Assembly: GCF_988242995.1 (NCBI RefSeq) | Contig: NZ_OZ547043.1 | Reading direction: 5' to 3' (one strand) | DNA length: 64,000 nt | Shown: positions 2,730 through 46,700 of the stretch, piece after piece | Layout of the letters: each line of letters starts with the position of its first letter | Position numbering within the stretch: position 1 is the stretch's first letter | Position numbers and translations under genes: made by a program | The notes under the pieces: generated by a model | The model's database searches: none | Told to the model about the DNA's origin: nothing | Seen by the model: only the letters and a program-made list of their open reading frames with translations

Positions 2730-4511
2730 ATGGCAAAAATGAGAGCCGTTGACGCGGCAATGTATGTGCTGGAGAAAGAAGGTATCACCACCGCCTTCGG
2801 CGTTCCGGGAGCAGCAATCAATCCGTTCTATTCAGCGATGCGTAAGCACGGCGGTATTCGTCACATTCTGGCGCGTCATGTGGAAGGTGCTTCGCACATG
2901 GCGGAAGGTTATACCCGCGCAACGGCAGGGAATATCGGCGTATGTCTGGGAACCTCGGGACCAGCAGGCACTGACATGATCACCGCGCTCTATTCCGCTT
3001 CTGCTGATTCCATTCCTATTCTGTGTATTACCGGTCAGGCACCGCGCGCCCGTCTGCATAAAGAAGATTTTCAGGCCGTAGATATTGAAGCAATTGCTAA
3101 ACCGGTCAGCAAAATGGCGGTTACAGTTCGTGAAGCGGCGCTGGTGCCTCGTGTGCTGCAACAGGCATTTCACCTGATGCGTTCTGGTCGTCCGGGGCCG
3201 GTACTGGTGGATTTACCGTTTGACGTACAGGTTGCGGAAATCGAGTTTGATCCTGACATGTACGAACCGCTGCCGGTCTACAAACCTGCAGCCAGCCGTA
3301 TGCAGATCGAAAAAGCGGTAGAAATGTTAATTCAGGCCGAACGTCCGGTGATTGTTGCCGGGGGCGGGGTAATCAATGCTGACGCAGCTGCACTGCTACA
3401 ACAGTTTGCTGAACTGACCAGCGTTCCGGTGATCCCAACGCTGATGGGCTGGGGCTGTATCCCGGATGACCACGAACTGATGGCCGGGATGGTGGGTCTG
3501 CAAACCGCGCATCGTTACGGTAACGCAACGCTACTGGCGTCCGACATGGTGTTTGGTATCGGTAACCGTTTTGCTAACCGTCATACCGGTTCGGTAGAGA
3601 AATACACCGAAGGGCGCAAAATCGTTCATATCGATATTGAGCCGACGCAAATTGGCCGCGTGCTGTGTCCGGATCTCGGCATTGTCTCTGATGCTAAAGC
3701 AGCGCTGACGCTGCTGGTTGAAGTGGCGCAGGAGATGCAAAAAGCGGGTCGTCTGCCGTGTCGTAAAGAATGGGTCGCCGACTGCCAGCAGCGCAAACGC
3801 ACTTTGCTGCGCAAAACCCACTTCGACAACGTGCCGGTGAAACCGCAGCGCGTGTATGAAGAGATGAACAAAGCCTTTGGTCGCGATGTTTGTTATGTCA
3901 CCACCATTGGTCTGTCACAAATCGCTGCGGCACAAATGCTGCATGTCTTTAAAGACCGCCACTGGATCAACTGTGGGCAGGCAGGCCCGCTGGGCTGGAC
4001 GATTCCGGCGGCGCTGGGGGTTTGTGTCGCGGATCCAGAGCGCAAAGTGGTGGCGATTTCCGGTGACTTCGACTTCCAGTTCCTGATTGAAGAGTTAGCC
4101 GTTGGCGCACAGTTCAACATTCCGTACATCCATGTACTGGTCAACAACGCTTATCTGGGGCTGATTCGCCAGTCGCAGCGCGCGTTTGATATGGATTACT
4201 GCGTACAGCTCGCGTTCGAAAATATTAACTCCAGCGAAGTGAACGGTTACGGCGTCGACCACGTAAAAGTAGCGGAAGGTTTAGGTTGTAAAGCGATTCG
4301 CGTTTTCAAACCGGAAGATATAGCACCAGCCTTTGAACAGGCGAAAGCCTTAATGGCGCAATATCGGGTACCGGTAGTCGTGGAAGTTATTCTCGAGCGT
4401 GTGACCAATATTTCGATGGGCAGCGAACTGGATAATGTCATGGAATTTGACGATATCGCCGATAACGCAGTGGATGCACCAACTGAAACCTGCTTCATGC
4501 ACTATGAATAA
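2730..4511 (+). CDS. gcl: glyoxylate carboligase (ThDP-dependent)
   Basis: 593 aa from ATG at 2730 preceded by AGAGGTAGG RBS; the track ORF from 2640 is an upstream extension. Confidence 0.9.
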
Positions 4512-5399: not shown

Positions 5400-6278
5400 A
5401 TGAAACTGGGATTTATTGGCTTAGGCATTATGGGTACACCGATGGCCATTAATCTGGCGCGAGCCGGTCATCAACTGCATGTCACAACCATTGGTCCGGT
5501 TGCTGATGAATTACTGTCACTGGGTGCCGTCAGTGTTGAAACTGCGCGCCAGGTAACGGAAGCATCGGACATCATTTTTATTATGGTGCCGGATACGCCA
5601 CAGGTTGAAGAAGTTCTGTTTGGTGAAAATGGTTGTACCAAAGCCTCGCTGAAGGGCAAAACCATTGTTGATATGAGCTCCATTTCCCCGATTGAAACTA
5701 AACGTTTCGCTCGTCAGGTGAATGAACTGGGCGGCGATTATCTCGATGCGCCCGTCTCCGGCGGTGAAATCGGCGCGCGTGAAGGGACGTTGTCGATTAT
5801 GGTTGGCGGTGACGAAGCGGTATTTGAACGTGTTAAACCGCTGTTTGAACTGCTCGGTAAAAATATCACCCTCGTGGGCGGTAACGGCGACGGTCAAACC
5901 TGCAAAGTGGCAAATCAGATTATCGTGGCGCTCAATATTGAAGCGGTTTCTGAAGCCCTGCTATTTGCTTCAAAAGCCGGAGCGGATCCGGTACGTGTGC
6001 GCCAGGCGCTGATGGGCGGCTTTGCTTCCTCACGTATTCTGGAAGTTCACGGTGAGCGTATGATTAAACGCACCTTTAATCCAGGTTTCAAAATTGCGCT
6101 GCACCAGAAAGATCTCAACCTGGCACTGCAAAGTGCGAAAGCACTGGCGCTGAACCTGCCAAACACCGCGACCTGCCAGGAATTGTTTAATACCTGTGCG
6201 GCAAACGGTGGCAGCCAGTTGGATCACTCTGCGTTAGTGCAGGCGCTGGAATTAATGGCTAACCATAAACTGGCCTGA
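5400..6278 (+). CDS. glxR: tartronate semialdehyde reductase
   Basis: 292-aa ORF with N-terminal GxGxxG NAD-binding motif (GLGIMG). Confidence 0.9.
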   Translation: MKLGFIGLGIMGTPMAINLARAGHQLHVTTIGPVADELLSLGAVSVETARQVTEASDIIFIMVPDTPQVEEVLFGENGCTKASLKGKTIVDMSSISPIETKRFARQVNELGGDYLDAPVSGGEIGAREGTLSIMVGGDEAVFERVKPLFELLGKNITLVGGNGDGQTCKVANQIIVALNIEAVSEALLFASKAGADPVRVRQALMGGFASSRILEVHGERMIKRTFNPGFKIALHQKDLNLALQSAKALALNLPNTATCQELFNTCAANGGSQLDHSALVQALELMANHKLA

Positions 6279-9380: not shown

Positions 9381-10682
9381 ATGTTCAATTTTGCAGTCAG
9401 CCGCGAAAGCCTGTTATCAGGATTTCAGTGGTTTTTCTTTATTTTTTGCAACACTGTTGTGGTTCCTCCTACGCTACTTTCTGCTTTTCAGTTGCCGCAA
9501 AGTAGCCTGCTTACGCTCACGCAATATGCTTTTCTTGCTACCGCACTGGCCTGCTTCGCTCAGGCGTTCTGCGGTCATCGTCGCGCTATTATGGAAGGGC
9601 CGGGTGGCCTGTGGTGGGGAACCATCCTTACTATCACCCTTGGCGAAGCATCGCGCGGGACACCGATCAACGATATCGCTACCAGTCTGGCGGTGGGGAT
9701 TGCGCTCTCCGGCGTGCTGACGATGTTGATTGGTTTTAGCGGATTAGGTCATCGTCTGGCGCGGTTATTTACGCCGTCGGTGATGGTCTTGTTTATGTTG
9801 ATGCTGGGCGCGCAGCTGACCACTATCTTTTTCAAAGGTATGCTCGGGCTGCCGTTTGGCATAGCCGACCCGAATTTTAAAATTCAGTTACCGCCGTTCG
9901 CGCTTTCGGTCGCGGTGATGTGCCTGGTACTGGCGATGATTATCTTTCTGCCGCAACGTTTTGCCCGTTATGGCCTGCTGGTCGGTACGATAACCGGCTG
10001 GTTGTTGTGGTACTTTTGCTTTCCTTCTTCGCATTCGCTCTCCGGTGAGTTGCACTGGCAGTGGTTCCCGCTCGGCAGTGGCGGTGCTTTGTCGCCGGGG
10101 ATTATTCTGACGGCGGTGATTACAGGTCTGGTTAATATCAGCAATACCTACGGTGCGATTCGGGGCACGGATGTTTTTTATCCGCAGCAGGGCGCGGGGA
10201 ATACGCGTTATCGTCGTAGCTTTGTGGCGACCGGATTTATGACGCTGATAACCGTACCGCTGGCGGTAATTCCATTTTCACCGTTTGTTTCATCCATTGG
10301 TTTATTAACCCAGACTGGCGATTACACGCGGCGTTCGTTTATTTATGGCAGCGTTATTTGCCTGCTGGTGGCGCTGGTTCCGGCACTCACGCGTCTGTTT
10401 TGCAGTATCCCCTTACCAGTGAGTAGCGCGGTCATGCTGGTTTCTTATCTGCCTTTACTCTTTTCGGCGCTGGTGTTTAGCCAGCAAATAACCTTTACCG
10501 CTCGCAATATTTATCGACTCGCATTGCCGTTATTTGTCGGCATATTTTTAATGGCATTACCGCCTGTGTATCTGCAAGACCTTCCATTAACGCTGCGTCC
10601 TCTGCTCAGTAACGGCTTACTGGTCGGGATTTTACTGGCTGTTCTTATGGATAATCTTATTCCGTGGGAACGCATCGAATAA
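9381..10682 (+). CDS. ybbY: putative purine/uracil-family permease
   Basis: 433-aa polytopic membrane protein; matches recalled YbbY. Confidence 0.8.
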   Translation: MFNFAVSRESLLSGFQWFFFIFCNTVVVPPTLLSAFQLPQSSLLTLTQYAFLATALACFAQAFCGHRRAIMEGPGGLWWGTILTITLGEASRGTPINDIATSLAVGIALSGVLTMLIGFSGLGHRLARLFTPSVMVLFMLMLGAQLTTIFFKGMLGLPFGIADPNFKIQLPPFALSVAVMCLVLAMIIFLPQRFARYGLLVGTITGWLLWYFCFPSSHSLSGELHWQWFPLGSGGALSPGIILTAVITGLVNISNTYGAIRGTDVFYPQQGAGNTRYRRSFVATGFMTLITVPLAVIPFSPFVSSIGLLTQTGDYTRRSFIYGSVICLLVALVPALTRLFCSIPLPVSSAVMLVSYLPLLFSALVFSQQITFTARNIYRLALPLFVGIFLMALPPVYLQDLPLTLRPLLSNGLLVGILLAVLMDNLIPWERIE

Positions 10683-36593: not shown

Positions 36594-36812
36594 TCACAGT
36601 CCCCATTGTTTGTTCTTAAGTTCGATCTCCTCCTGGCAACTTGCACAAGTCCGACAACCCTGAACAGCCAGGCGTCTTCGCTCATCTATCGGATCGCCAC
36701 ACTCACAACAATGAGTTGCGGATACAGTCTGGTAGTTCAGACGACGCATTTTTATTGCTGTATTGCGCTGTAATTCTTCGATTTCTGATGCTGAATCAAT
36801 GATGTCTGCCAT
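36594..36812 (-). CDS. TraR/DksA-family C4 zinc-finger protein
   Basis: 72-aa ORF with CxxC...CxxC pattern (CCECGDPID...CRTCASC) typical of phage TraR-like proteins. Confidence 0.6.
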   Translation of the reverse strand: MADIIDSASEIEELQRNTAIKMRRLNYQTVSATHCCECGDPIDERRRLAVQGCRTCASCQEEIELKNKQWGL

Positions 36813-36861
36813 CTTTCATTAATCCCTGAATTGTTGGTTAATACGCTTGAGGGTAAATGCG

Positions 36862-36889
36862 AATAATAAAAAAGGAGCCTGTAGCTCCC
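36862..36889 (-). terminator. rho-independent terminator on the minus strand
   Basis: hairpin ggagcctgtagctcc preceded on the plus strand by an A-run (a T-run on the transcribed strand). Confidence 0.4.
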
Positions 36890-36910
36890 TGATGATTTTG
36901 CTTTTCATGT

Positions 36911-37192
36911 TCACCGTTCCTTAAAGACGCCGTTCAACATGCCGATCGCCAGGCTTAAATGAGTCGGTGTGAATCCCATCAGCGTTACCGTTTCGCGGTG
37001 CTTCTTTAGTACGCTACGGCAAATGTCATCGACGTTTTTATCCGGAAAATGCTGTCTGGCTTTTTTGATTTCAGAATTAGCCAGACGGGCAATGCTGCGA
37101 AGGGCGTTTTCTTGCTGAGGTGTCATTGAACAAGCCCCATGTCGGCAAGCATAAGCACACAGAATATGAAGCCCGCTGCCAGAAAAATGCAT
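36911..37192 (-). CDS. hypothetical phage protein
   Basis: 93-aa ORF in the early-left operon; start uncertain. Confidence 0.4.
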   Translation of the reverse strand: MHFSGSGLHILCAYACRHGACSMTPQQENALRSIARLANSEIKKARQHFPDKNVDDICRSVLKKHRETVTLMGFTPTHLSLAIGMLNGVFKER

Positions 37193-37202
37193 TCAGTGGT
37201 TG

Positions 37203-37394
37203 TCATACCTGGTCTCTCTCATCTGCTTCTGCTTTCGCCACCATCATTTCCAGCTTTTGTGAAAGGGATGTGGCTAACGTATGAAATTCTTCGTCTGTTT
37301 CTACTGGTATTGGCACAAACCTGACTCCAATTTGAGCAAGGCTATGTGCCATCTCAATACTCGTTCTTAACTCAACAGGAGATGCTTTGTGCAT
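37203..37394 (-). CDS. hypothetical small phage protein
   Basis: 63-aa acidic ORF, co-oriented with and just upstream of exo. Confidence 0.35.
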   Translation of the reverse strand: MHKASPVELRTSIEMAHSLAQIGVRFVPIPVETDEEFHTLATSLSQKLEMMVAKAEADERDQV

Positions 37395-37545
37395 ACCGCC
37401 TCCCGTTTATTATTTATCTTCTCAGCCAGCCGCTGTGCTTTCAGTGGATTTCTGATAACAGAAAGGCCGGGAAATACCCAGCCTCGCTTTGTAACGGAGT
37501 AGACGAAAGTGATCGCGCCTACCCGGATATTATCGTGAGGATGCG

Positions 37546-38226
37546 TCATCGCCATTGCTCCCCAAATACAAAACCAATTTCAGCCAGTGCCTCGTCCATT
37601 TTTTCGATGAACTCCGGCACCATCTCGTCAAAACTCGCCATGTACTTTTCATTCCGCTCAATCACGACATAATGCAGGCCTTCACGCTTCATGCGCGGGT
37701 CATAGTTGGCAAAGTACCAGGCATCTTTTCGCGTCACCCACATGCTGTACTGCACCTGGGCCATGTAAGCCGATTTTATTGCCTCGAAACCACCGAGCCG
37801 GAATTTCATGAAATCCCGGGAGGTAAACGGGCATTTCAGTTCAAGGCCGTTGCCGTCACTGCATAAACCATCGGGAGAGCAGGCGGTGCGCATACTTTCG
37901 TCGCGATAGATGATCGGGGATTCAGTAATATTCACGCCGGAAGTGAATTCAAACAGGGTTCTGGCGTCGTTCTCGTACTGTTTTCCCCAGGCCAGCGCCT
38001 TAGCATTAACTTCCGGAGCCACACCGGTGCAAACCTCAGCCAGCAGGGTGTGGAAGTAGGACATTTTCATGTCAGGCCACTTCTTTCCTGAGCGGGGCTT
38101 TGCTATCACGTTGTGAACTTCTGAAGCGGTGATGACGCCGAGCCGTAATTTGTGCCATGCATCATCCCCCTGTTCGACAGCTCTCACGTCGATCCCGGTA
38201 CGCTGCAGGATAATGTCCGGTATCAT
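37546..38226 (-). CDS. exo: lambda exonuclease (Red-alpha)
   Basis: 226-aa ORF near-identical to recalled lambda Exo ([30 protein letters not shown]...). Confidence 0.9.
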
Positions 38227-39008
38227 GCTGCCACCTTCTGCTCAGTGGCTTTCTGTTTCAGGAATCCAAGAGCTTTCACTGCTTCGGCCTGTGTCAGTTC
38301 TGACGATGCGCGAATGTCGCGGCGAAATATCTGGGAACAGAGCGGCAATAAGTCGTCATCCCATGTTTTATCCAGGGCGATCAGCAGAGTGTTAATCTCC
38401 TGCATGGTTTCATCGTTAACCGGAGTGATGTCGCGTTCTGGCTGACGTTCTGCAGTGTATGCAGTATTTTCGACAATGCGCTCGGCTTCATCCTTGTCAT
38501 AGATACCAGCAAATCCGAAGGCCAGACGGGCACACTGAATCATGGCTTTATGCCGTAACATCCGTTTGGGATGCGACTGCCACGGCCCCGTGATTTCTCT
38601 GCCTTCGCGGGTTTTGAATGGTTCGCGGCGGCATTCATCCATCCATTCGGTAACGCAGATCGGATGATTACGGTCCTTGCGGTAAATCCGGCATGTACAG
38701 GATTCATTGTCCTGCTCAAAGTCCATGCCATCAAACTGCTGGTTTTCATTGATGATGCGGGACCAGCCATCAACGCCCACCACCGGAACAATGCCGTTCT
38801 GCTTATCAGGGAAGGCGTAAATTTCTTTCGTCCACGGATTAAGGCCGTACTGGTTGGCGACGATCAGCAATGCGATGAACTGCGCATCGCTGGCATCACC
38901 TTTAAATGCCGTCTGGCGAAGAGTGGTGATCAGTTCCTGTGGGTCGACAGAATCCATGCCGACACGTTCAGCCAGCTTCCCTGCCAGCGTTGCGAGTGCT
39001 GTACTCAT
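38223..39008 (-). CDS. bet: recombination protein Bet (Red-beta)
   Basis: 261-aa ORF near-identical to recalled lambda Bet. Confidence 0.9.
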
Positions 39009-39013
39009 CCGTT

Positions 39014-39310
39014 TTATACCTCTGAATCAATATCAACCTGGTGGTGAGCAATGGTTTCAACCATGTACCGGATGTGTTCTGCCATGCGCTCCTGAAACTC
39101 AACATCGTCATCAAACGCACGGGTAATGGCTTTTTTGCTGGCCCCGTGGCGTTGCAAATGATCGATGCATAGCGATTCAAACAGGTGCTGGGGCAGGCCT
39201 TTTTCCATGTCGTCTGCCAGTTCTGCCTCTTTCTCTTCACGGGCGATCTGCTGGTAGTAACGCGCCCAGCTCTGAGCCTCAAGACGATCCTGAATGTAAT
39301 AAGCGTTCAT
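39014..39310 (-). CDS. gam: host RecBCD inhibitor Gam
   Basis: 98-aa ORF matching recalled lambda Gam short form ([17 protein letters not shown]...). Confidence 0.85.
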
Positions 39311-39385
39311 GGCTGAACTCCTGAAAATGGCTGTGAAAATATCGCCCGCGAAATGCCAGGCTGATTAGGAAAACAGGAAAGGGGA

Positions 39386-39796
39386 TTAGCGATTCAGGCC
39401 GTTAGCGCGTCCGTCGAGAAAAACTTCCACGAGCAAATCACGGGTATAAGTGCGCTCGATGCCGCGATGCAGATAAAGCCGTCCGCGTAAATTACCTGAT
39501 GCAGTCCAGGTACCATCTTTGTGTTTGACCAGCATTCCTGGCATGATCGCACCTCGATTAACGGTCTGCGTTCCGTAATGTTGATGAACCATAAAAACTC
39601 CTGCCCGTAAGCTGGGCTGCTGAACATATAGAGACTTCTGCGCGTATTCAGGCGGTGGATGGCCGCCGGTTGTCATAACTAAGTCGCCTCGTTGAAGCGA
39701 CTGAGGTATGAAGTGTTGAGTTGATTTCAGCTGGTCACACCGACGTTCACGCGTCCGTTTCACCCCTCGCACTCCCCGAAGCCTGCTGAAATTCAA
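39386..39796 (-). CDS. hypothetical early-left protein with Arg-rich N-terminus, function unknown
   Basis: 136-aa ORF between gam and the putative pL/oL region, where lambda carries kil-cIII-ral-sieB-N; no match to recalled lambda N, Kil or CIII. Confidence 0.4.
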
Positions 39797-39849
39797 ACTG
39801 CGGATCTAAGCGGTCATCGCAACGGTGAATCAGGTAGTTGCCGTATCGT

Positions 39850-39946
39850 TGTGTTGTTGCGATGAACTTATTTAAAACTATAGTTGTTTTATCGTCAACA
39901 ACAAAAGTTGTTTTATTGGTTGTTTTAGATATAACTGGTTGTATTT
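39850..39946. promoter_or_regulatory. putative left operator/promoter (oL/pL) region
   Basis: several GTTGTT/AACAAC motifs including the palindrome AACAACaaaaGTTGTT (39897-39912), the same half-site seen between cI and cro. Confidence 0.35.
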
Positions 39947-40019
39947 AGGATGGATTTATTTTGTGACTTGAATCGCATAGCGATAACTGAAGCGAGGTTA
40001 TGGTGGTTTTTTTAACGGT

Positions 40020-40048
40020 GTGTGTGATGAGGGGAGGGCAAAAGAAAA
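40020..40048 (-). terminator. rho-independent terminator downstream of cI
   Basis: hairpin cccggcacggtgaccggg; on the minus strand it is followed by TTTTCTTTT. Confidence 0.45.
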
Positions 40049-40187
40049 CCCGGCACGGTGACCGGGATTCTTACGCCGTTAGGTAAAGATATTATTGCGG
40101 TGGCTTAATATTACTACCTAGAGCAAAGATAGGAATTAGTTCTTTACTGAATGAGCACAATGCCCAGTTGATAATTTTTAATTGGTA

Positions 40188-40877
40188 CTACCCATGCTTC
40201 CTATATGTCTGCGGCATGCTCCCAATAACCTTACCGAAGATGAACACCCGGTTCATCTCGTCTTTCTCGATCGGGTCCCACGGTGAGTAGCTTTTGTTAT
40301 CAGAGATGACCAGCAGCTTATCCTTCATCATTTGCAGGCGCTTTACATGGGCTGTGTCGTCGTACAGAAACGCATAGATACCATCACCGTCGAAAGATTT
40401 AACTGTGATATCAACGAACAGCAGATCACCTGGTTCGATCGTTCCTGACATGCTGTCACCACGCACGTTAATGATGCGGATATTTTCCGCCTTCCTACCA
40501 TCGAACATGTGACGAGCATCGTCAAACGAGTACTCAACCGAGCGTAGAACTTCTACAAACTCACGGTTGATGACTCCCGGCCCAGCACTGACTTCTATAT
40601 CAAGAACGTCAATCTTGAAGTATTTGGAATGGCTGACAGTTGATTGTATTGGTTGCACTGTACTGTCTGACATATTTCCAACGCCAGAAGATAACCATTC
40701 TGCGCGCACACCCAAAGCGTTCGCGATCTCCACGATTTTAGTTGTTTGATTAGCTTTCCCTGTTTCGATTTTCTGAATAGCAGCCTGGCTAACCCCGACC
40801 AAATCCCCAAGCGCCTTTTGTGTAAGGCCTCGCGCTAATCTGGCTTCTTTAAGTCTTTCTGAGAGTGTTGTTTTCAT
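40188..40877 (-). CDS. cI: prophage repressor (CI-like): N-terminal HTH, C-terminal LexA-type S24 peptidase domain
   Basis: 229 aa from Met MKTTLSERLKEARLARGLTQKALG...; self-cleavage-type GDSM motif; divergent from cro. Confidence 0.8.
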   Translation of the reverse strand: MKTTLSERLKEARLARGLTQKALGDLVGVSQAAIQKIETGKANQTTKIVEIANALGVRAEWLSSGVGNMSDSTVQPIQSTVSHSKYFKIDVLDIEVSAGPGVINREFVEVLRSVEYSFDDARHMFDGRKAENIRIINVRGDSMSGTIEPGDLLFVDITVKSFDGDGIYAFLYDDTAHVKRLQMMKDKLLVISDNKSYSPWDPIEKDEMNRVFIFGKVIGSMPQTYRKHG

Positions 40878-40885
40878 AGTCCAAA

Positions 40886-40943
40886 TGTACAACCAAGGTT
40901 TTATTCCATCAAACGAAAATGGTTGTTGACTAAAAACAACCAT
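40886..40943. promoter_or_regulatory. putative right operator (oR) / pRM-pR region
   Basis: palindromes AACCAAGGTT (40891-40900) and ATGGTTGTT-N7-AACAACCAT (40919-40943) in the 104-bp cI-cro divergent intergenic. Confidence 0.5.
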
Positions 40944-40981
40944 AGTTTTAATCTTGATTCAAATTAACCACGGAGGTTGTT

Positions 40982-41212
40982 ATGAACCCAGCTATCAAAA
41001 CAGCGATCAATATCGTTGGTTCACAAAAGAAACTGGGCGCTGCTTGCGAAGTTTCACAGCAGGCCGTCTATAAGTGGCTTCACAACAAAGCAAAGGTATC
41101 CCCTGAACATGTCGGCAGCATTGTTACGGCTACTGGTGGAGTAGTGAAGGCATACCAGATTCGCCCGGATCTTCCGAAGTTGTTTCCACACACCGAAAAG
41201 AACGCAGCTTAA
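40982..41212 (+). CDS. cro: Cro-like HTH regulator
   Basis: 76-aa ORF with HTH (KKLGAACEVSQQAVYKWL), divergent from cI. Confidence 0.7.
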   Translation: MNPAIKTAINIVGSQKKLGAACEVSQQAVYKWLHNKAKVSPEHVGSIVTATGGVVKAYQIRPDLPKLFPHTEKNAA

Positions 41213-41281
41213 ATTTCCATTTCACGCTCTTTAACAATAAGCAATCAACTTAACAGTCAATTCAAACTAAAGGAGTCAATT

Positions 41282-41821
41282 ATGCAACCACTTACATACC
41301 AACAGACTAGCGGATTTAGCCCGACTGCGGTGATAAATCGTTCTCAAACAAAACAGGTGCCAGGCCACGAAAAAATCCGTGATGCCGTCCGCGCCTGGTC
41401 GGCTGTAGATAATCAGGATGTCGTTGCCACACTCATTGTGAATGAGTATCGGGAGCAGGGCGGCGGCACCATCGATTTCCCTGATGATGTCAGCCGTGCA
41501 CGCCAGAAGCTGTTCCGCTTCCTCGATAACAAATTCGATTCTGAAAAATACCGAAATAACGTGCGTGAACTGACCCCGGCAATTCTGGCGGTACTACCGC
41601 TGGAATATCGCGGTTACCTGGTTGAGCAGGATAGCTTCATGGCTAGGTTGGCTGAAATGGAAAAGGAACTCAGTGAGGCAAAACAGGCTGTCATTCTCAA
41701 CGCACCACGCCACCAGAAACTGAAGGAAATTAGTGAAGGTATTGTGTCGATGTTTCGTGTGGACCCAGATCTGGCTGGTCCATTGATGGCGATGGTTACT
41801 ACCATGCTGGGGGCGATATGA
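41282..41821 (+). CDS. CII-like regulatory protein (family assignment tentative)
   Basis: 179-aa ORF between cro and O, the position of cII; resembles recalled phage CP76-type proteins. Confidence 0.45.
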   Translation: MQPLTYQQTSGFSPTAVINRSQTKQVPGHEKIRDAVRAWSAVDNQDVVATLIVNEYREQGGGTIDFPDDVSRARQKLFRFLDNKFDSEKYRNNVRELTPAILAVLPLEYRGYLVEQDSFMARLAEMEKELSEAKQAVILNAPRHQKLKEISEGIVSMFRVDPDLAGPLMAMVTTMLGAI

Positions 41822-41907
41822 CAGGTTCAGAAATGGCGAAAGCCGGTCTGCTGGAACAGAACCGACTTTCAGGTGCAAATCGTAACACACTCATTGCGGG
41901 AGGAATT

Positions 41908-42837
41908 ATGGCAAACACTGCTGAGATATTCAATTTTCCAGTGCCGGATGCGGCACAAAAGGAGCCGCGCGTGGCAGATCTCGATGATGGTTATACGCGC
42001 ATTGCAAATGAGTTGCTGGAAGCTGTGATGCTGGCCGGATTAACACAGCACCAGCTTCTGGTCTTTCTGGCTGTCATGCGCAAAACATATGGCTTTAATA
42101 AAAAACTGGATTGGGTTAGCAACGAGCAACTTTCCGAATTAACCGGGATATTGCCGCACAAGTGTTCTGCTGCAAAAAGTGTTCTGGTAAAGCGTGGGAT
42201 TTTTATTCAGAGCGGGCGGAATACCGGCATTAATAATGTGGTCAGTGAATGGTCAACATTACCCGAATCAGGTAAGAGAAATAAAGTTTACCTGAAAGAG
42301 GTAAATTTACCTGAATCAGGTAAAAAAAGTTTACCCAAATCAGGTAAAGGCGTTTACCCGAATCAGGTAAACACAAAAGACAAACTAACAAAAGACAATA
42401 TAAAACCTTTTTCGTCCGAGAATTCTGGCGAATCCTCTGACCAACCAGAAAACGATCTTCCTGTGGTGAAACCGGATGCTGCAATTCAGAGCGGCAGCAA
42501 GTGGGGGACAGCAGAAGACCTGACCGCCGCAGAGTGGATGTTTGACATGGTGAAGACCATCGCGCCATCAGCCAGAAAACCGAATTTTGCAGGGTGGGCT
42601 AACGATATCCGCCTGATGCGTGAACGTGACGGACGTAACCACCGCGACATGTGCGTGCTGTTCCGCTGGGCATGCCAGGACAACTTCTGGTCCGGTAACG
42701 TGCTAAGTCCGGCCAAACTCCGCGACAAGTGGACCCAGCTCGAAATCAACCGAAACAAGCAACAGGCTGGCGTGACAGCCGGCAAACCAAAACTCGACCT
42801 GACGAACACTGACTGGATTTACGGGGTGGAGCTATGA
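41908..42837 (+). CDS. O: replication initiator O
   Basis: lambda O-like N-terminus (..NFPVP..VADLDDGY..) from ATG 41908 with GGGAGG RBS; contains ori iterons; track start 41818 also possible. Confidence 0.8.
   Translation: MANTAEIFNFPVPDAAQKEPRVADLDDGYTRIANELLEAVMLAGLTQHQLLVFLAVMRKTYGFNKKLDWVSNEQLSELTGILPHKCSAAKSVLVKRGIFIQSGRNTGINNVVSEWSTLPESGKRNKVYLKEVNLPESGKKSLPKSGKGVYPNQVNTKDKLTKDNIKPFSSENSGESSDQPENDLPVVKPDAAIQSGSKWGTAEDLTAAEWMFDMVKTIAPSARKPNFAGWANDIRLMRERDGRNHRDMCVLFRWACQDNFWSGNVLSPAKLRDKWTQLEINRNKQQAGVTAGKPKLDLTNTDWIYGVEL
42259..42371. repeat. replication origin iterons inside O
   Basis: five direct repeats of about 19 bp, TTTACC(C/T)GAAtCAGGTAAA, each internally palindromic. Confidence 0.6.
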
Positions 42838-43535
42838 AAAACATCGCCGCACAGATGGTTAACTTTGACTGTGAGCAGATGCGCCGGATCGCCAACAACA
42901 TGCCGGAACAGTACGACGAAAAGCCACAGGTACAGCAGGTAGCGCAGATCATCAACGGTGTGTTCAGCCAGTTACTGGCAACTTTCCCGGCGAGCCTGGC
43001 TAACCGTGACCAGAATGAACTGAACGAAATCCGCCGCCAGTGGGTTCTGGCTTTCCGGGAAAACGGGATCACCACAATGGAACAGGTTAACGCTGGAATG
43101 CGCGTAGCCCGTCGGCAGAATCGACCATTCCTGCCATCACCCGGGCAGTTTGTCGCCTGGTGCCGGGAAGAAGCATCTGTTAACGCCGGGCTGCCAAACG
43201 TCAGCGAGCTGGTTGATATGGTTTACGAGTATTGCCGGAAGCGTGGCCTGTATCCGGATGCAGAGTCTTATCCGTGGAAATCGAACGCGCATTACTGGTT
43301 GGTTACCAACTTGTACCAGAACATGCGGGCCAATGCGCTGACTGACGCGGAATTACGGCGCAAGGCTGCCGATGAACTGACCTGTATGACAGCGCGAATT
43401 AACCGTGGTGAGACGATACCTGAACCAGTAAAACAACTTCCTGTTATGGGCGGTAGACCTCTAAATCGTGCACAGGCTCTGGCGAAGATCGCAGAAATTA
43501 AAGCTAAGTTTGGACTGAAAGGATCGATGAAATAG
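42834..43535 (+). CDS. P: replication protein P (DnaB helicase loader)
   Basis: 233-aa ORF near-identical to recalled lambda P. Confidence 0.9.
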   Translation: MKNIAAQMVNFDCEQMRRIANNMPEQYDEKPQVQQVAQIINGVFSQLLATFPASLANRDQNELNEIRRQWVLAFRENGITTMEQVNAGMRVARRQNRPFLPSPGQFVAWCREEASVNAGLPNVSELVDMVYEYCRKRGLYPDAESYPWKSNAHYWLVTNLYQNMRANALTDAELRRKAADELTCMTARINRGETIPEPVKQLPVMGGRPLNRAQALAKIAEIKAKFGLKGSMK

Positions 43536-43774
43536 AGCTAAAATATTAGCTTTAAAATAAAGTATATCTAGCGAATATAATCCAGGACTGGTTGTAATGC
43601 CCGCAATAATTGATTGCGTGAGTAATAAAATTTTTCTTCCATTGTAATCATTTAACCATAAAGTTTATGAGGATATTTTATTTGTGTGTTGATTTTTTTG
43701 TAACGTTCTGTATATTTCGCACCTCTTGTCATACCAGTTATTTTTTTCATTATATTCATAACGTTGATTGAACT

Positions 43775-46700
43775 ATGACCACTGTGAATAAAAAGTTAAA
43801 AAAAACTGCATCTGGCGCGATTACATGGTCAGTAATTGTTACCCAGATATTATCTCCAGTTTCTCTTTCTTTGATTCCGGCAAACAGTTTTGCATCGTCT
43901 GATAATAAAGATGTTACGCAAATTTATGCTAGCGATGAGCGTGCAAATAAAGTGGCCTCATTTGCAGTAAGTGCAGGTCAGAGTCTGGCGAATAATAATG
44001 CAAGTAGTTTTGCTGTAAATACTTTATCAACTCAGGCGACAAAAGAGGTCGTCGATTGGTTGCAACAATATGGCAATGCGCGCATCAAGCTTAATGTCGA
44101 TGATTCTTTTTCCTTGAAGGATTCATCATTCGACTTTTTATATCCATGGCTGGATACTCAGGATTATGTGCTATTCAGTCAGACATCACTACATCGTACT
44201 GATGACCGTAATCAGACCAATATTGGTTTGGGGATTCGTCATTTCACTCCTGATAATGCAATGTTGGGTGCGAATGTTTTCTACGATTATGATTTAAGTC
44301 GCAGCCACTCTCGCGCAGGTTTTGGGGTTGAGTACTGGAGAGATTATTTCAGGTTTGGTGTAAATACCTATTTTGGTTTATCTGACTGGAAGGACAGTCG
44401 GGATATTGATGATTATCTGGAAAGACCCGCAAATGGCTGGGATTTTTCTGCTGAAGGATGGCTACCTGCTTATCCGCAATTAGGGGCATCTATTCAGTTT
44501 GAAAAATATTATGGTAAAAATGTCGGATTATTTGGAAGCGATAATCTGCAGGAAAACCCTTACGCAGTTACTGGGGGAATTTCTTATACACCAGTTCCTC
44601 TGATTAAGTTTTCTGCACAGCATAAGCAAGGACAGAGCAACGTTCACGATACAACCTTTGGTGTTGAGTTTAATTACCGCCCAGGCGTTTCCCTTGCTGA
44701 ACAGCTTAGCAGTGACAATGTTGCAGTTATGCGAGAAGTCCAGAACCGGCGTTATGATTTTGTTGAACGAAATAACAACATTGTTCTGGAGTACAAGAAG
44801 AAGCATGCACTGAAAATCAGCTTACCAGAGTCTGTTCAGGGGGATGGCGAATCAATCATCCCTGTAACACTGACAATCAACAATGCCAGTGGTGGTATCA
44901 AGTCTGTACAGTGGAATGATAGTGTATTCACTGCGGCTGGCGGTAAGATCAGTGGAAATGGCACATCATGGCAGGTCACTTTACCGGCTTATAAAAGCGA
45001 AGGTGTAAATTCGTGGAATGTTGGAGCCACGGTCCAGGATAATAGAGGCAACGTTTCCAACTATGCGGTGATGAATATTAGCGTTATTAATAGTGGTGTC
45101 TCGACAGCGGATTCTTCTTTTATGTTGGATGGAGATTCATCTCCGACGATCTCTGCTGATGGTCAATCCACTCATCCAATAGTATTAAGCCTGAAAGACA
45201 GTAACGGTAAGGCATTAACCGGACTGGCTGATGACATTGAAATGTCAGTGGAATTTACTGCGGATAGCAATAGTGCTCGACAGCGTGAAACGGTAACTGC
45301 CCCGTCATTAGGCGCGGTAGAGGAAATCTCTGCTGGTGTATATCGCTCTGTTCTGACTGCTGGTTCGCAGGCTGGCACAGTACGTGTAACAGCAAAAGTT
45401 CAGGGAAAAACCTTTACTTTGAATATTAAGCAGGCAGCCGTTATTGATAGTGATGTCTCGACAGCGGATTCTTCTTTTACGTTGGATGGTGATTCGTCTC
45501 CGACGATCTCTGCTGATGGTCAATCCACTCATCCAATAGTATTAAGCCTGAAAGACAGTAACGGTAAGGCATTAACCGGACTGGCTGATGACATTGAAAT
45601 GTCAGTGGAATTTACTGCGGATAGCAATAATGCTCGACAGCGTGAAACGGTAACTGCCCCGTCATTAGGCGCGGTAGAGGAAATCTCTGCTGGTGTATAT
45701 CGCTCTGTTCTGACTGCTGGTTCGCAGGCTGGTACGGTACGTGTAACTGCAAAAGTAATGGATAAAACATTTACTCTCAGTATTAAGCAAACAGCAGCAA
45801 CAGAACCTGATTCTGAGGTCAGTGCTGTTTTAACCGCTGCACCAGCAGAACAGGTAGTTGGTTACAATATCAATCTACAACTGGCAGTGAAGGATTCACA
45901 AGGAAATGCAATCACTGGTGATAACACTCTGAGCTTTTATGCTCTTAACCAGGCAGAAGGAGTCGAGTTTGGGGCAGTAACGGAAAAAGACGGTGTCTAT
46001 AGCGCGACAGTAACTTCAAAACGAGCTGGTAAGATTCGGATCGGTGTTAAATCGGGTAGTCACAATTTCTCAGGTATTGAGAAAGAAATCTCCTTTATTG
46101 AAGATCGAACACAGTTCGCATTCTCTCGTATTGAAGCCAGTAAAAATAATGCATTGGCTGACGGCAAACAAAAGAATACGGTGACTGTAAGCCTTGCAGA
46201 TCGTTTCGGCAATGTTGTGCCCGGTTATGCTGTTACGCTGTCCTTACCTGCGGGGGTAACTCAAGTTGGTGGTGAACATGCTGTGTCAACTGACGAAAAC
46301 GGTAATGCTGTTTTTGCGTTAATAAGCTCCACTCCGGGTTCTTACGTGATTAAAGCTCATGCTGGTTCTCAGATGTCTACTGAGTTAACAGTAACCTTTG
46401 CATCAAATATGATCGGAGCTTCACTGTCACTGACGCCTGGAAACAGTAGCTTAATTTCCAATATTCCTGCTAATGGTAAGGATGCTGCGGTATTGAATGT
46501 GCAACTGACAAATACGAATGCGTCGGTCAATGGACAGAAGATTCAGCTCATCACCTCATCTGAAGGATTGTCTGTACCGACAAATATCGTGACTGATTCA
46601 ACAGGGCATGTTTCCGTACCACTTACAACGGTGAGAGCTGGTGAGTATACGGTGGCTGCACGAGTGACTGACGGTTCCCATAGTGTGGAGTCTGGCAGCG

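Follow-up and report, generated by a model that had tools for sequence, protein, structure and literature searches.

The repressor of phage 434 contacts bases through three residues of its recognition helix, Gln28, Gln29 and Gln33. In CP-933P of E. coli O157:H7, whose control genes encode PaaR2, YdaS and YdaT, lambda-like PR, PRM and PL promoters and a leaderless repressor mRNA have been described (PMC8630535, PMC9986795), and YdaT-family proteins have been assigned a role as CII equivalents (PMC9986795, PMC8630535). A sister phage with the same CI C-terminal domain as the repressor studied here is induced by DNA-damaging bacteriocins (bioRxiv 10.64898/2026.05.26.727859). Searching the literature with exact operator strings and phage names, we found no description of the operators of the immunity type analyzed below.

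We analyzed a 64,000-nucleotide stretch of DNA from contig NZ_OZ547043.1 (the window). The locus of interest is a lambdoid prophage immunity module with cI (encoding helix-turn-helix (HTH) and S24 peptidase domains), a YdaS-type cro and a YdaT-type cII, and represents an ordinary control region for lysis and lysogeny in a lambda-like E. coli phage. In its flanks, identity to lambda is 97% for exo/bet/gam and 94% for the lambda-like portion of O and P. BLAST homology to lambda ends at 39392 and restarts at 42371, with zero similarity to lambda detected across 39393-42370. An earlier note on this DNA had described a non-lambda immunity module between lambda-like flanks, which agrees with this break in homology, and the modular mosaicism that it read from the arrangement was borne out as real. 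PhiR34_1 is 99.6% identical to the region, and the immunity type also occurs in several phages isolated recently. The specificity patch described below is present in 1523 of 5426 complete E. coli genomes (28%), O157:H7 included. The genes of the module and the cI terminator are:

39386..39676, minus strand: kil-family gene, 96 aa, first gene of the leftward (pL) operon (phrog_294 Kil, E 1.9e-35; annotated Kil in IdasGreatGrand; ATG and TAA checked)
40049..40066, minus strand: intrinsic terminator after cI, a 6-pair stem (5 G-C) followed by TTTTCTTTTG
40188..40877, minus strand: cI repressor, 229 aa (Pfam HTH_3, 5.4e-13; Peptidase_S24, 1.2e-18)
40982..41212, plus strand: cro, YdaS family, 76 aa (Pfam YdaS_toxin, 4.1e-17; weak P22_Cro match; phrog_35)
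41282..41821, plus strand: cII-equivalent, YdaT family (Pfam YdaT_toxin, 8.5e-30)

The repressor had been called a LexA-like CI, and both its Pfam domains and its catalytic residues fit that description: Ala-Gly at 98-99, Ser in GDSM (142) and Lys in VKRL (179) align with lambda CI A111-G112, S149 and K192. The HTH recognition helix, SQAAIQKIETG, begins at residue 30. The CI N-terminal domain and the 434 repressor share 39% identity in an ungapped alignment of 62 residues (E 3e-15), and the PDB matches of CI, 1per and 1r69 (E 4.5e-9), make the 434 repressor the nearest solved structure for this domain. An alternative 251-aa cI ORF from 40943 has an unlikely start and would span the operators. 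The cII-equivalent lies outside the immunity-specific patch and is 96.7% identical to that of a heteroimmune sister. As for the YdaT site TTGATT-N6-AATCAA, we found only a partial look-alike, TTGATTCAAATTAACCAC, at about 40955-40972.

The N gene is absent after kil. An HK022-like put RNA in the pL leader, considered as a way to account for this absence, is unsupported; the HK022 immunity region is similar only in the cI C-terminal part. An Rfam search of 38900-41900 at E <= 1 returned zero matches, and the fold of the pL leader is ordinary (z = -1.0).

The divergent cI (minus strand) and cro (plus strand) genes are separated by 104 bp, which hold three 14-mers overlapped by candidate pR and pRM promoters. 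Most likely, the repressor binds five or six 14-bp sites of the phage 434 type, with the form ACAAC-N4-GTTGT, that flank its gene on both sides. The sites, given without a strand, are:

39874..39887: OL1 (predicted), AAAACTATAGTTGT; 19.8 bits, the window's best match to a matrix made from relatives' oR sites only
39898..39911: OL2 (predicted), ACAACAAAAGTTGT; 16.9 bits, the window's only perfect ACAA-N6-TTGT site (8/8)
39929..39942: candidate OL3, ATATAACTGGTTGT; half GGTTGT good, the other half degenerate; tentative, below the matrix threshold
40889..40902: OR3 (predicted), ACAACCAAGGTTTT; 17.4 bits, in the pRM spacer
40913..40926: OR2 (predicted), ACGAAAATGGTTGT; 14.4 bits, fifth-best match in the window and the weakest site
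40936..40949: OR1 (predicted), ACAACCATAGTTTT; 19.6 bits, in the pR spacer
40967..40980: possible fourth weak site, ACCACGGAGGTTGT, over the cro ribosome-binding site; 9/10 half-site positions match

OL1, OR1, OR2 and OR3 each match the outer bases (ACAA, positions 1-4; TTGT, positions 11-14) at 7/8, and all but one of the five strong sites have a degenerate half. The half-sites ACAAC/GTTGT recur in oR and oL, consistent with the earlier proposal that operator sets built on a common half-site flank cI on both sides. The motifs named in that proposal are also present. AACAAC-AAAA-GTTGTT, at 39897-39912, corresponds to the predicted OL2 and was centered correctly, as was AACCAAGGTT, which occurs once in the window (40891-40900) and forms the core of the predicted OR3. 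Additional GTTGTT copies were found at 39853, 39883, 39907, 39919 and 40976. OR1 is an 18-nt direct copy of OR3. The degenerate half of OR2, ACGAA, is identical in 4/4 phages, an observation that the 14-mer model leaves unexplained.

OL3 is probably a weak third oL site; its TGGTTGT half is kept in the Klebsiella and Providencia relatives, and it lies inside the immunity-specific oL patch. The possible site at 40967-40980 is likewise kept in relatives, where conservation is confounded by the GGAGG Shine-Dalgarno sequence and by common descent. Other candidates were rejected. A 14-mer within cI (40732-40745, 12.3 bits) is absent from the cI genes of relatives and was treated as chance. GGTTGT at 39918, considered as a half-site, lacks conservation in the Klebsiella and Providencia phages, and IdasGreatGrand carries a mutation in it. 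GTTGTGTTGTT (39848-39858) falls within the transcribed leader of pL and is kept in a heteroimmune phage with different operators.

The scoring matrix was built from nine oR sites of Klebsiella ST101-KPC2phi6.1, Providencia PSTCR7lys and Erwinia phiEt88 only, phages in which the recognition helix is identical or nearly so and three oR 14-mers stand in matching register. With this foreign-oR matrix, the top five matches in 64 kb are OL1, OR1, OR3, OL2 and OR2. It also found oL site pairs 24 bp apart in 3/3 relatives, none of them used in training. Start-to-start distances in the four phages are 24, 24, 24 and 24 for OR3-OR2, 23, 23, 23 and 24 for OR2-OR1, and 24, 24, 24 and 24 for OL1-OL2, and the N4 spacing within every 14-mer is invariant. 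The consensus is symmetric because the degenerate halves differ from phage to phage. At the OR3 position, the Providencia phage has the perfect palindrome ACAACTTCAGTTGT. A third variant of the helix, in a Stx1-phage relative, is accompanied by 14-mers of the form ATAAC-N4-GTTAT, arranged in the same way. Among E. coli variants, which have diverged by ~6% in the oL intergenic region, the half-sites of OL1, OL2 and OR1-3 show 0 substitutions where ~1.7 are expected, a depletion that is not significant alone. OL1 is invariant among these variants, and the sole variant seen in OR1 is at a central position.

Clustering of this kind might be a functionless by-product of AT-rich, low-complexity intergenic DNA, and window-wide, sites with at most two mismatches from ACAACNNNNGTTGT are no commoner than in shuffles (29 vs 30.5). 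The local counts, however, are almost never reached in dinucleotide-preserving shuffles: the 94-bp oL patch has five copies of GTTGT against a mean of 0.52, with 0 of 2000 shuffles reaching five, and the 104-bp oR has four against a mean of 0.68, with 3 of 2000 reaching four. Among 160 AT-rich 100-bp windows of the 64 kb, the four richest in GTTGT all lie within the oL/oR regions. The two intergenic regions, 495 bp in all (0.8% of the window), hold five of the window's eight sites with at most one mismatch from ACAACNNNNGTTGT (binomial P = 1.5e-9). The motifs are thus well above chance with the local AT-rich composition considered, which answers the earlier note's concern that they might be no more frequent than in random AT-rich DNA. 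In addition, site register is conserved across four genera, and the sites are replaced jointly with the HTH in a heteroimmune sister. The by-product reading is already refuted, and its probability is close to nil.

We assigned pR, pRM and pL from comparative evidence only, namely positions that are conserved in relatives; a consensus promoter scan reported none of these promoters, and pR and pL are weak consensus matches. The predicted elements are:

40926..40931, plus strand: predicted pR -35, TTGACT (TTGACT, TTGATT or TTGAGT in relatives)
40949..40954, plus strand: predicted pR -10, TAATCT, after a 17-bp spacer (TATTCT, TATTAT or TATAAT at the equivalent place in relatives); weaker than the consensus scan detects
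40907..40912, minus strand: predicted pRM -35, TTGATG, abutting OR2 (TTG kept in four phages; spacer 17 bp)
40884..40889, minus strand: predicted pRM -10, TACATT (TAnnTT 6-7 nt 5' of the ATG in 4/4 phages)
39893..39898, minus strand: predicted pL -35, TTGACG, read from the sequence (TTGACT or TTGACA in relatives)
39869..39875, minus strand: predicted pL -10, either TTAAAT (39870-39875, 17-bp spacer) or TAAATA (39869-39874, 18-bp spacer); position kept in three relatives

Over 19 nt, the pL block repeats the pR/OR1 block in inverted orientation, with 95% complementarity. Because the predicted pRM -10 ends 7 nt before the cI ATG, cI mRNA from pRM would be leaderless.

Together, these features make it very probable that the locus is a lambda-style bistable switch with operators of the phage 434 style. 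CI, with its 434-like N-terminal HTH and C-terminal S24 self-cleaving domain, would bind as a dimer to the ACAAC-N4-GTTGT 14-mers. OR1, within the pR spacer, and OR2, immediately 5' of the pR -35, would jointly shut off pR and with it cro, cII, O and P. CI bound at OR2, which abuts the pRM -35, could stimulate its own gene through the leaderless mRNA, and OR3 in the pRM spacer would provide negative autoregulation. OL1 and OL2, probably with a weak OL3, would cover pL and turn off kil-gam-bet-exo. The YdaS-family Cro is expected to use the same sites with the opposite order of preference, and RecA-stimulated cleavage at Ala98-Gly99 would inactivate CI and lead to prophage induction. We infer binding, cooperativity, pRM activation, the Cro preference order and CI cleavage from the sequence and its relatives.

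The earlier note had centered its oR operator elsewhere, on a 25-bp palindrome that spans the gap between two of these sites:

40919..40943, no strand: ATGGTTGTT-N7-AACAACCAT, made up of one half each of OR2 (right) and OR1 (left), straddling the pR -35; no separate unit

The sequence is present as described, its arms, 9 nt each and 7 nt apart, showing 100% complementarity, and taken as one operator it would place a single CI dimer across the pR -35, leaving the other GTTGTT/AACAAC copies as extra half-sites. Arms that are perfect over 9 nt and coverage of the pR -35 speak for this assignment, as does the fact that the strong halves of neighboring sites face each other, as a conserved pair, in oR of 4/4 phages and in oL. 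Each arm belongs to a different operator, one to OR2 and the other to its neighbor OR1, and is the promoter-proximal half of that site. The distance between the arms is not conserved: phiEt88 oR and each of the four oL regions have one extra base in the spacer (start-to-start 24 vs 23), whereas the N4 spacing within the 14-mers does not vary. As an operator unit, the palindrome is not supported. Its outer arm bases, those beyond GTTGT/ACAAC, are not kept in the Klebsiella relative and are non-complementary there. A single operator across the -35 also leaves unexplained OR3, the perfect 14-bp symmetry of OL2 and the conserved outer halves AAAAC and ACGAA, as well as the perfect 14-bp palindromes that the Providencia phage and two heteroimmune sister types have at the same positions. 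Finally, it would reverse the half-site orientation relative to the homologous 434 repressor. We consider it very improbable, and retain the 14-bp sites as the predicted operators. A terminator scan flagged the palindrome on both strands; conservation in relatives extends to only 5 bp of the stem, transcription from either promoter would start downstream of the palindrome, and we rejected it as a hairpin or terminator.

A heteroimmune sister, Lambda_4C10, delimits the immunity-specific parts of the module. Its identity to this phage is 96-97% for the flanks and 95.6% for the C-terminal core of cI, and falls to chance level in exactly two patches, 39862-39955 and about 40630 to 41281. The first is the sole stretch left of cI that is unrelated between the two phages:

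39862..39955, no strand: immunity-specific oL patch, 41.5% identical to Lambda_4C10 (96.9% to its left, 90.6% to its right)

Lambda_4C10 has a different HTH and ATAC-N6-GTAT 14-mers as operators at equivalent positions, and its cro is swapped along with the cI HTH and the operator patches. Because CI and Cro are swapped together, co-variation alone cannot tell which protein reads the sites. This leaves room for an assignment in which the YdaS-type Cro, or Cro with another factor, is their main reader and CI recognizes something else in the same patches. The CI DNA-binding domain, however, is homologous to that of the 434 repressor, whose sites share the length and the ACAA outer bases of those found here. 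In every lambdoid switch studied, as in the CP-933P YdaS/PaaR2 system, the footprints of repressor and Cro overlap (PMC8630535), and we found no second repeated motif common to the oL and oR patches. Recognition mainly by Cro is very improbable in our view, and CI remains the predicted reader of the 14-mers.

By extent, the first patch is 94 bp at oL, and the second, about 650 bp, takes in cro, oR and, from cI, the linker and HTH helices. The region between them, 91-96% identical, holds the cI terminator and the C-terminal domain that the repressors share. Immunity specificity in this phage group may be exchanged as two short, separate patches, and mixed dimers or higher oligomers could form between the repressors of co-resident prophages, because heteroimmune prophages encode the same dimerization and cleavage domain. 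This proposal is speculative, and we think it rather unlikely. If true, two-patch exchange would be a natural counterpart to the classic helix-swap experiment, and mixed oligomers would couple the stability or induction of two co-resident prophages.

The operator map leaves the understanding of how such switches work unchanged. If correct, it would help to predict homoimmune prophages and to design induction assays and reporter fusions for a gut prophage that is prevalent. Set beside the related immunity types, the half-sites also offer a natural series for how a 434-type helix reads DNA: ACAAC, ATAAC, ATACG and the ACAAG/ACAAT of 434.

Among the described systems, CP-933P shares with this locus YdaS-family Cro and YdaT-family CII equivalents beside a divergent repressor gene. 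It differs in its repressor, PaaR2 with a downstream toxin-antitoxin pair in place of an S24 CI, and in its reported 18-bp palindromic repeats, whose half-site GTTTAGTAA is unrelated to ACAAC. The Bievrevirus Lambda_4C10/4A7 immunity type shares the genome backbone, cII, O, P, the pL leader, kil, the operator layout and the cI C-terminal domain (95.6% DNA identity), and differs in the HTH (AQPTIWRLTSG), Cro, the ATAC-N6-GTAT operators and two additional genes between cI and oL.

With lambda, the locus shares the overall switch logic, OR1 in the pR spacer overlapping the -10, OR2 at the pR -35, start-to-start spacings of 23 and 24 bp, a predicted leaderless cI mRNA from pRM, and the Ala-Gly, Ser and Lys residues of CI. 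In contrast, CI is only 23% and Cro 25% identical to the lambda proteins, which places the locus outside imm lambda. The operators are 14 bp rather than 17 bp and unrelated in sequence, and the first pL gene is kil, not N.

Phage 434 has a homologous repressor DNA-binding domain and 14-bp operators with ACAA...TTGT outer bases (annotated record OL657226). Three oR and three oL sites (the third oL site here being tentative), OR2 abutting the pRM -35, OR3 in the pRM spacer beside the -10, and an oL2-oL3 spacing of 31 bp (here OL2 to candidate OL3) are also common to the two. The differences begin with the protein: only Q28 of the three contact glutamines is kept, Q29 being replaced by A and Q33 by K, and with two of the three replaced, the contacts cannot simply be copied from 434. 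Site spacing is 24/23 here vs 23/22 in 434, one base longer, and OR1 lies in the pR spacer here, whereas in 434 OR2 occupies the spacer and OR1 follows the -10. This locus also has a YdaS-family Cro and a YdaT-family cII, and no N, rex or hex gene. Half-site position 5 is C here and never C in the 12 half-sites of 434; because of this difference and the different recognition helix, homoimmunity with 434 is unlikely.

The sequence around the motifs forms the early control region of a lambdoid prophage; it is an immunity region of an ordinary and very common lambdoid type. BLAST against lambda gave 97% identity over 36617-39392 (orf61 through exo, bet and gam) and 94% over 42371-43523 (the end of O, plus P). 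Across 39393-42370 there was no similarity, in agreement with the earlier note's claim of a non-lambda immunity module. This segment contains no N gene, leaving the prophage without N.

Genes and non-coding features of the region
39386-39676, minus strand: kil-family gene (phrog_294)
510 bp: non-coding stretch between kil and the repressor gene
40049-40066: terminator after cI
40188-40877, minus strand: repressor gene cI (Pfam HTH_3 and Peptidase_S24)
104 bp: cI-cro intergenic region
40982-41212: cro, YdaS family
41282-41821: cII equivalent, YdaT family
within the non-lambda segment (39393-42370): start of the O-type replication gene

The repressor had been called a LexA-like CI, and its domains bear this out: in an alignment with lambda CI, its Ala-Gly, GDSM serine and VKRL lysine match A111-G112, S149 and K192. 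Over 39380-41830, identity is 99.6% with Escherichia phage PhiR34_1 and 97% with IdasGreatGrand and others. Of 5426 complete E. coli genomes, 1523 carry the specificity-determining part (40745-41280), O157:H7 among them.

The earlier note had described operators built on AACAAC/GTTGTT half-sites; the palindrome that it listed first spans 25 bp at 40919-40943. All of its quoted motifs lie where it had placed them, and they cluster beyond AT-richness: dinucleotide-preserving shuffles of both intergenic regions essentially never match the observed GTTGT counts, the top four AT-rich 100-bp windows for GTTGT across the 64 kb all fall within these regions, and 5 of the 8 sites within one mismatch of ACAACNNNNGTTGT lie within 495 bp (P = 1.5e-9). 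The nearest solved structure to the repressor N-terminal domain is the phage 434 repressor (39% identity over 62 residues, gapless), and the annotated genome of phage 434 (OL657226) carries six operators, each 14 bp, of the form ACAA-N6-TTGT. Read in this form, the sequence gives predicted operators on both sides of cI, which upholds the proposed common half-site: OR1-OR3 in the cI-cro intergenic region (oR), and OL1 and OL2 on the far side of cI (oL).

Predicted 14-bp operators, with matrix scores
40889-40902: OR3, ACAACCAAGGTTTT, 17.4 bits
40913-40926: OR2, ACGAAAATGGTTGT, 14.4 bits
40936-40949: OR1, ACAACCATAGTTTT, 19.6 bits
39874-39887: OL1, AAAACTATAGTTGT, 19.8 bits
39898-39911: OL2, ACAACAAAAGTTGT, 16.9 bits
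39929-39942: candidate OL3, ATATAACTGGTTGT, one good half, kept in two relatives

OL2 is the sole perfect ACAA-N6-TTGT site within 64 kb and corresponds to the quoted AACAAC-AAAA-GTTGTT; the quoted AACCAAGGTT is the OR3 core. The 25-bp palindrome, by the same reading, joins the right half of OR2 to the left half of OR1 across the pR -35 hexamer. The original interpretation is thus right in substance and wrong in its parse of the main palindrome. Candidate OL3 lies inside an immunity-specific patch, 31 bp from OL2, equal to the 434 oL2-oL3 spacing. OR2 is the weakest of the five sites by matrix score and its degenerate half, ACGAA, is identical in four genera, which would fit filling by cooperativity.

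The two parses, 14-mers or 25-bp palindrome, can be compared in three phages from other genera obtained by tblastn with the repressor N-terminal domain. Klebsiella ST101-KPC2phi6.1 and Providencia PSTCR7lys have the same recognition helix, GVSQAAIQKIETG, and Erwinia phiEt88 has a near-identical one, GVSQANIQKLENG. The cI-cro region of all three carries three 14-mers in the same register as the window. The degenerate half differs between phages, OR3 of the Providencia phage being a perfect ACAACTTCAGTTGT, and the consensus is therefore the symmetric ACAAC-N4-GTTGT. We scanned non-circularly, with a symmetrised matrix from the nine foreign oR sites only. The five best sites in the whole window were OL1, OR1, OR3, OL2 and OR2, the next (13.9 bits) lying elsewhere, and in each relative the matrix picked out an oL pair exactly 24 bp apart, with no oL site in training. 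The N4 core is constant throughout these sites. Measured start to start, the distances in the window and its three relatives (phiEt88 last) are 24/24/24/24 for OR3-OR2, 23/23/23/24 for OR2-OR1 and 24/24/24/24 for OL1-OL2; thus the arms of the 25-bp palindrome are separated by one extra base in the oR of phiEt88 and in each oL, a variation that one rigid dimer is not expected to accommodate. The same arrangement recurs, as ATAACATGAGTTAT, ATAACAATTGTTGT and ATAACCGTGGTTAT, in a Stx1-phage relative whose helix is a third variant. E. coli variants ~6% diverged in the oL-side intergenic DNA have 0 substitutions in the half-sites of the five sites, and their single within-site change affects a central base, one that is variable between genera as well; on its own, this absence of half-site substitutions is weak support for the 14-mers.

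A natural swap is provided by Lambda_4C10 (genus Bievrevirus), a heteroimmune sister with the same backbone. It is 96.9% identical to the window up to 39861, 90.6% over 39956-40146, 95.6% at the DNA level over the C-terminal core of cI and 96.7% from cII on. Only two patches drop to chance-level identity (41-50%): 39862-39955, a separate 94-bp patch at oL, and ~40630 to 41281. Both the HTH of its CI and its Cro are different; ATACGCTTGCGTAT stands at the OR3 position and ATACGCATTGCTAT at the OR1 position, with like sites in the oL patch. These alternative predicted operators are likewise 14-bp palindromes. Given the two divergent patches and the HTH change, the predicted operators lie exactly within the DNA that changes with the recognition helix. 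Within cI (window 40188-40877 vs Lambda_4C10 3686-4378), the C-terminal core of ~140 aa is 100% identical at the protein level, and the linker and helices 1-3 of the HTH show no relationship; the repressor gene is thus a mosaic in its own right. The modular mosaicism proposed earlier is upheld. The sharp two-patch mosaic around a common repressor C-terminal domain is the most interesting by-product. Heteroimmune prophages in one host would produce repressors that have their dimerisation domain in common.

Other observations concern cI and its surroundings. An operator-like 14-mer, ACGATTTTAGTTGT (40732-40745, 12.3 bits), lies within cI exactly where homology to the sister breaks, and has no counterpart in the cI genes of the three relatives. 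At 40967-40980, ACCACGGAGGTTGT matches the operator half-sites at 9/10 positions; it lies over the cro Shine-Dalgarno, 31 bp from OR1, and is kept in relatives, inseparably from ribosome-binding-site conservation. The slot from the cI stop to the cI terminator and oL (40143-40187) holds no cargo in the window; what close relatives carry there differs: an ASCH-domain gene together with a 353-aa gene (4C10, IdasGreatGrand and the O157:H7 strain), a pair of Ser/Thr kinase and PP2C phosphatase genes (strain 82.0312), or rexAB (the Klebsiella phage).

Predicted promoters
pR: -35 TTGACT 40926-40931, -10 TAATCT 40949-40954, spacer 17 bp
pRM, minus strand: -35 TTGATG 40907-40912, -10 TACATT 40884-40889, spacer 17 bp
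pL, minus strand: -35 TTGACG 39893-39898, -10 TTAAAT 39870-39875 or TAAATA 39869-39874, spacer 17 or 18 bp

These assignments are predicted from position and conservation; a consensus promoter scan did not report pR, pRM or pL. In the relatives the pR -10 position reads TATTCT, TATTAT and TATAAT. OR1 occupies the predicted pR spacer, reaching the -10, and OR2 meets the pR -35 on its upstream side. OR2 also adjoins the predicted pRM -35, the position from which the lambda and 434 repressors activate pRM, and OR3 occupies the pRM spacer. The pR/OR1 block recurs in inverted form at pL/OL1 (19 nt, 95% complementary). The predicted pRM -10 ends 7 nt from the cI ATG, and TAnnTT stands 6-7 nt before the ATG in 4/4 phages, so that the cI mRNA is predicted to lack a leader, like that of lambda. 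In the deposited PhiR34_1 annotation (PV340559), cI begins at an upstream ATG (251 aa), and its coding region would span OR3 and OR2 (window 40878-40943); a putative MKTTL start at 40877, giving 229 aa, agrees with the homologues and with the leaderless pRM transcript predicted here.

The switch most likely follows the lambda paradigm, using 434-type sites. Dimers of CI would repress pR from OR1 and OR2, and pL from OL1 and OL2; CI at OR2 would stimulate pRM, CI synthesis would be limited through OR3, and Cro would act at the same sites. Prophage induction would proceed via RecA-stimulated self-cleavage of CI at Ala98-Gly99, a step with indirect support: the 4C10 prophage, which shares this C-terminal domain of CI, is induced by DNA-damaging bacteriocins (bioRxiv 10.64898/2026.05.26.727859).

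Just past cro lies a perfect rrn-type boxA, CGCTCTTTAACAA (41225-41237; 12/12 to GCTCTTTAACAA, the sole exact match in the window), with no convincing boxB hairpin after it. This boxA is missing from the heteroimmune sister; the Providencia and Stx1 relatives have a boxA plus a boxB-like hairpin at the equivalent place. In phiEt88 the stretch after cro (~5875-5945) is almost identical to the post-cro stretch of HK022 (~9445-9520), which is without annotation in the HK022 record and which we take to be the putR antiterminator RNA; if so, early antitermination would rely on different devices among relatives that share this operator type. The pL leader before kil (39677-39862, minus strand, 186 nt) is 97% conserved between heteroimmune phages and begins with a perfect 10-bp stem (39814-39823 pairing 39856-39865). 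Its overall fold is not unusual (z = -1.0), and it has neither an Rfam match nor similarity to HK022 put. Around the start of kil, a 60-nt segment (39651-39712) also occurs in HK225, phi80 and Enterobacter/Klebsiella phages.

Downstream of P (~43500-46000), PhiR34_1 and O157:H7 annotations place ren, emrE, ybcK, ybcL, ybcM, ybcN, ninE, ybcO, rusA, ylcG and Q. The defective K-12 prophage DLP12 has the same ren-to-Q gene order, and the window therefore looks like an intact DLP12 relative; the immunity region that DLP12 lost may have been of this type.

We found no description of these operators in the open-access literature, which does not prove that none exists. The region resembles 434 in repressor fold and operator geometry, and lambda in promoter-operator register (OR1 within the pR spacer, spacings of 23-24 bp). 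It is not imm434: the repressor keeps one of the three base-contacting glutamines of 434, half-site position 5 is C, which it never is in 434, and pR in the 434 annotation differs by a one-operator shift. Nor is it imm lambda. The CP-933P switch has YdaS and YdaT in common with the window but differs in its repressor and repeats (PMC8630535, PMC9986795).
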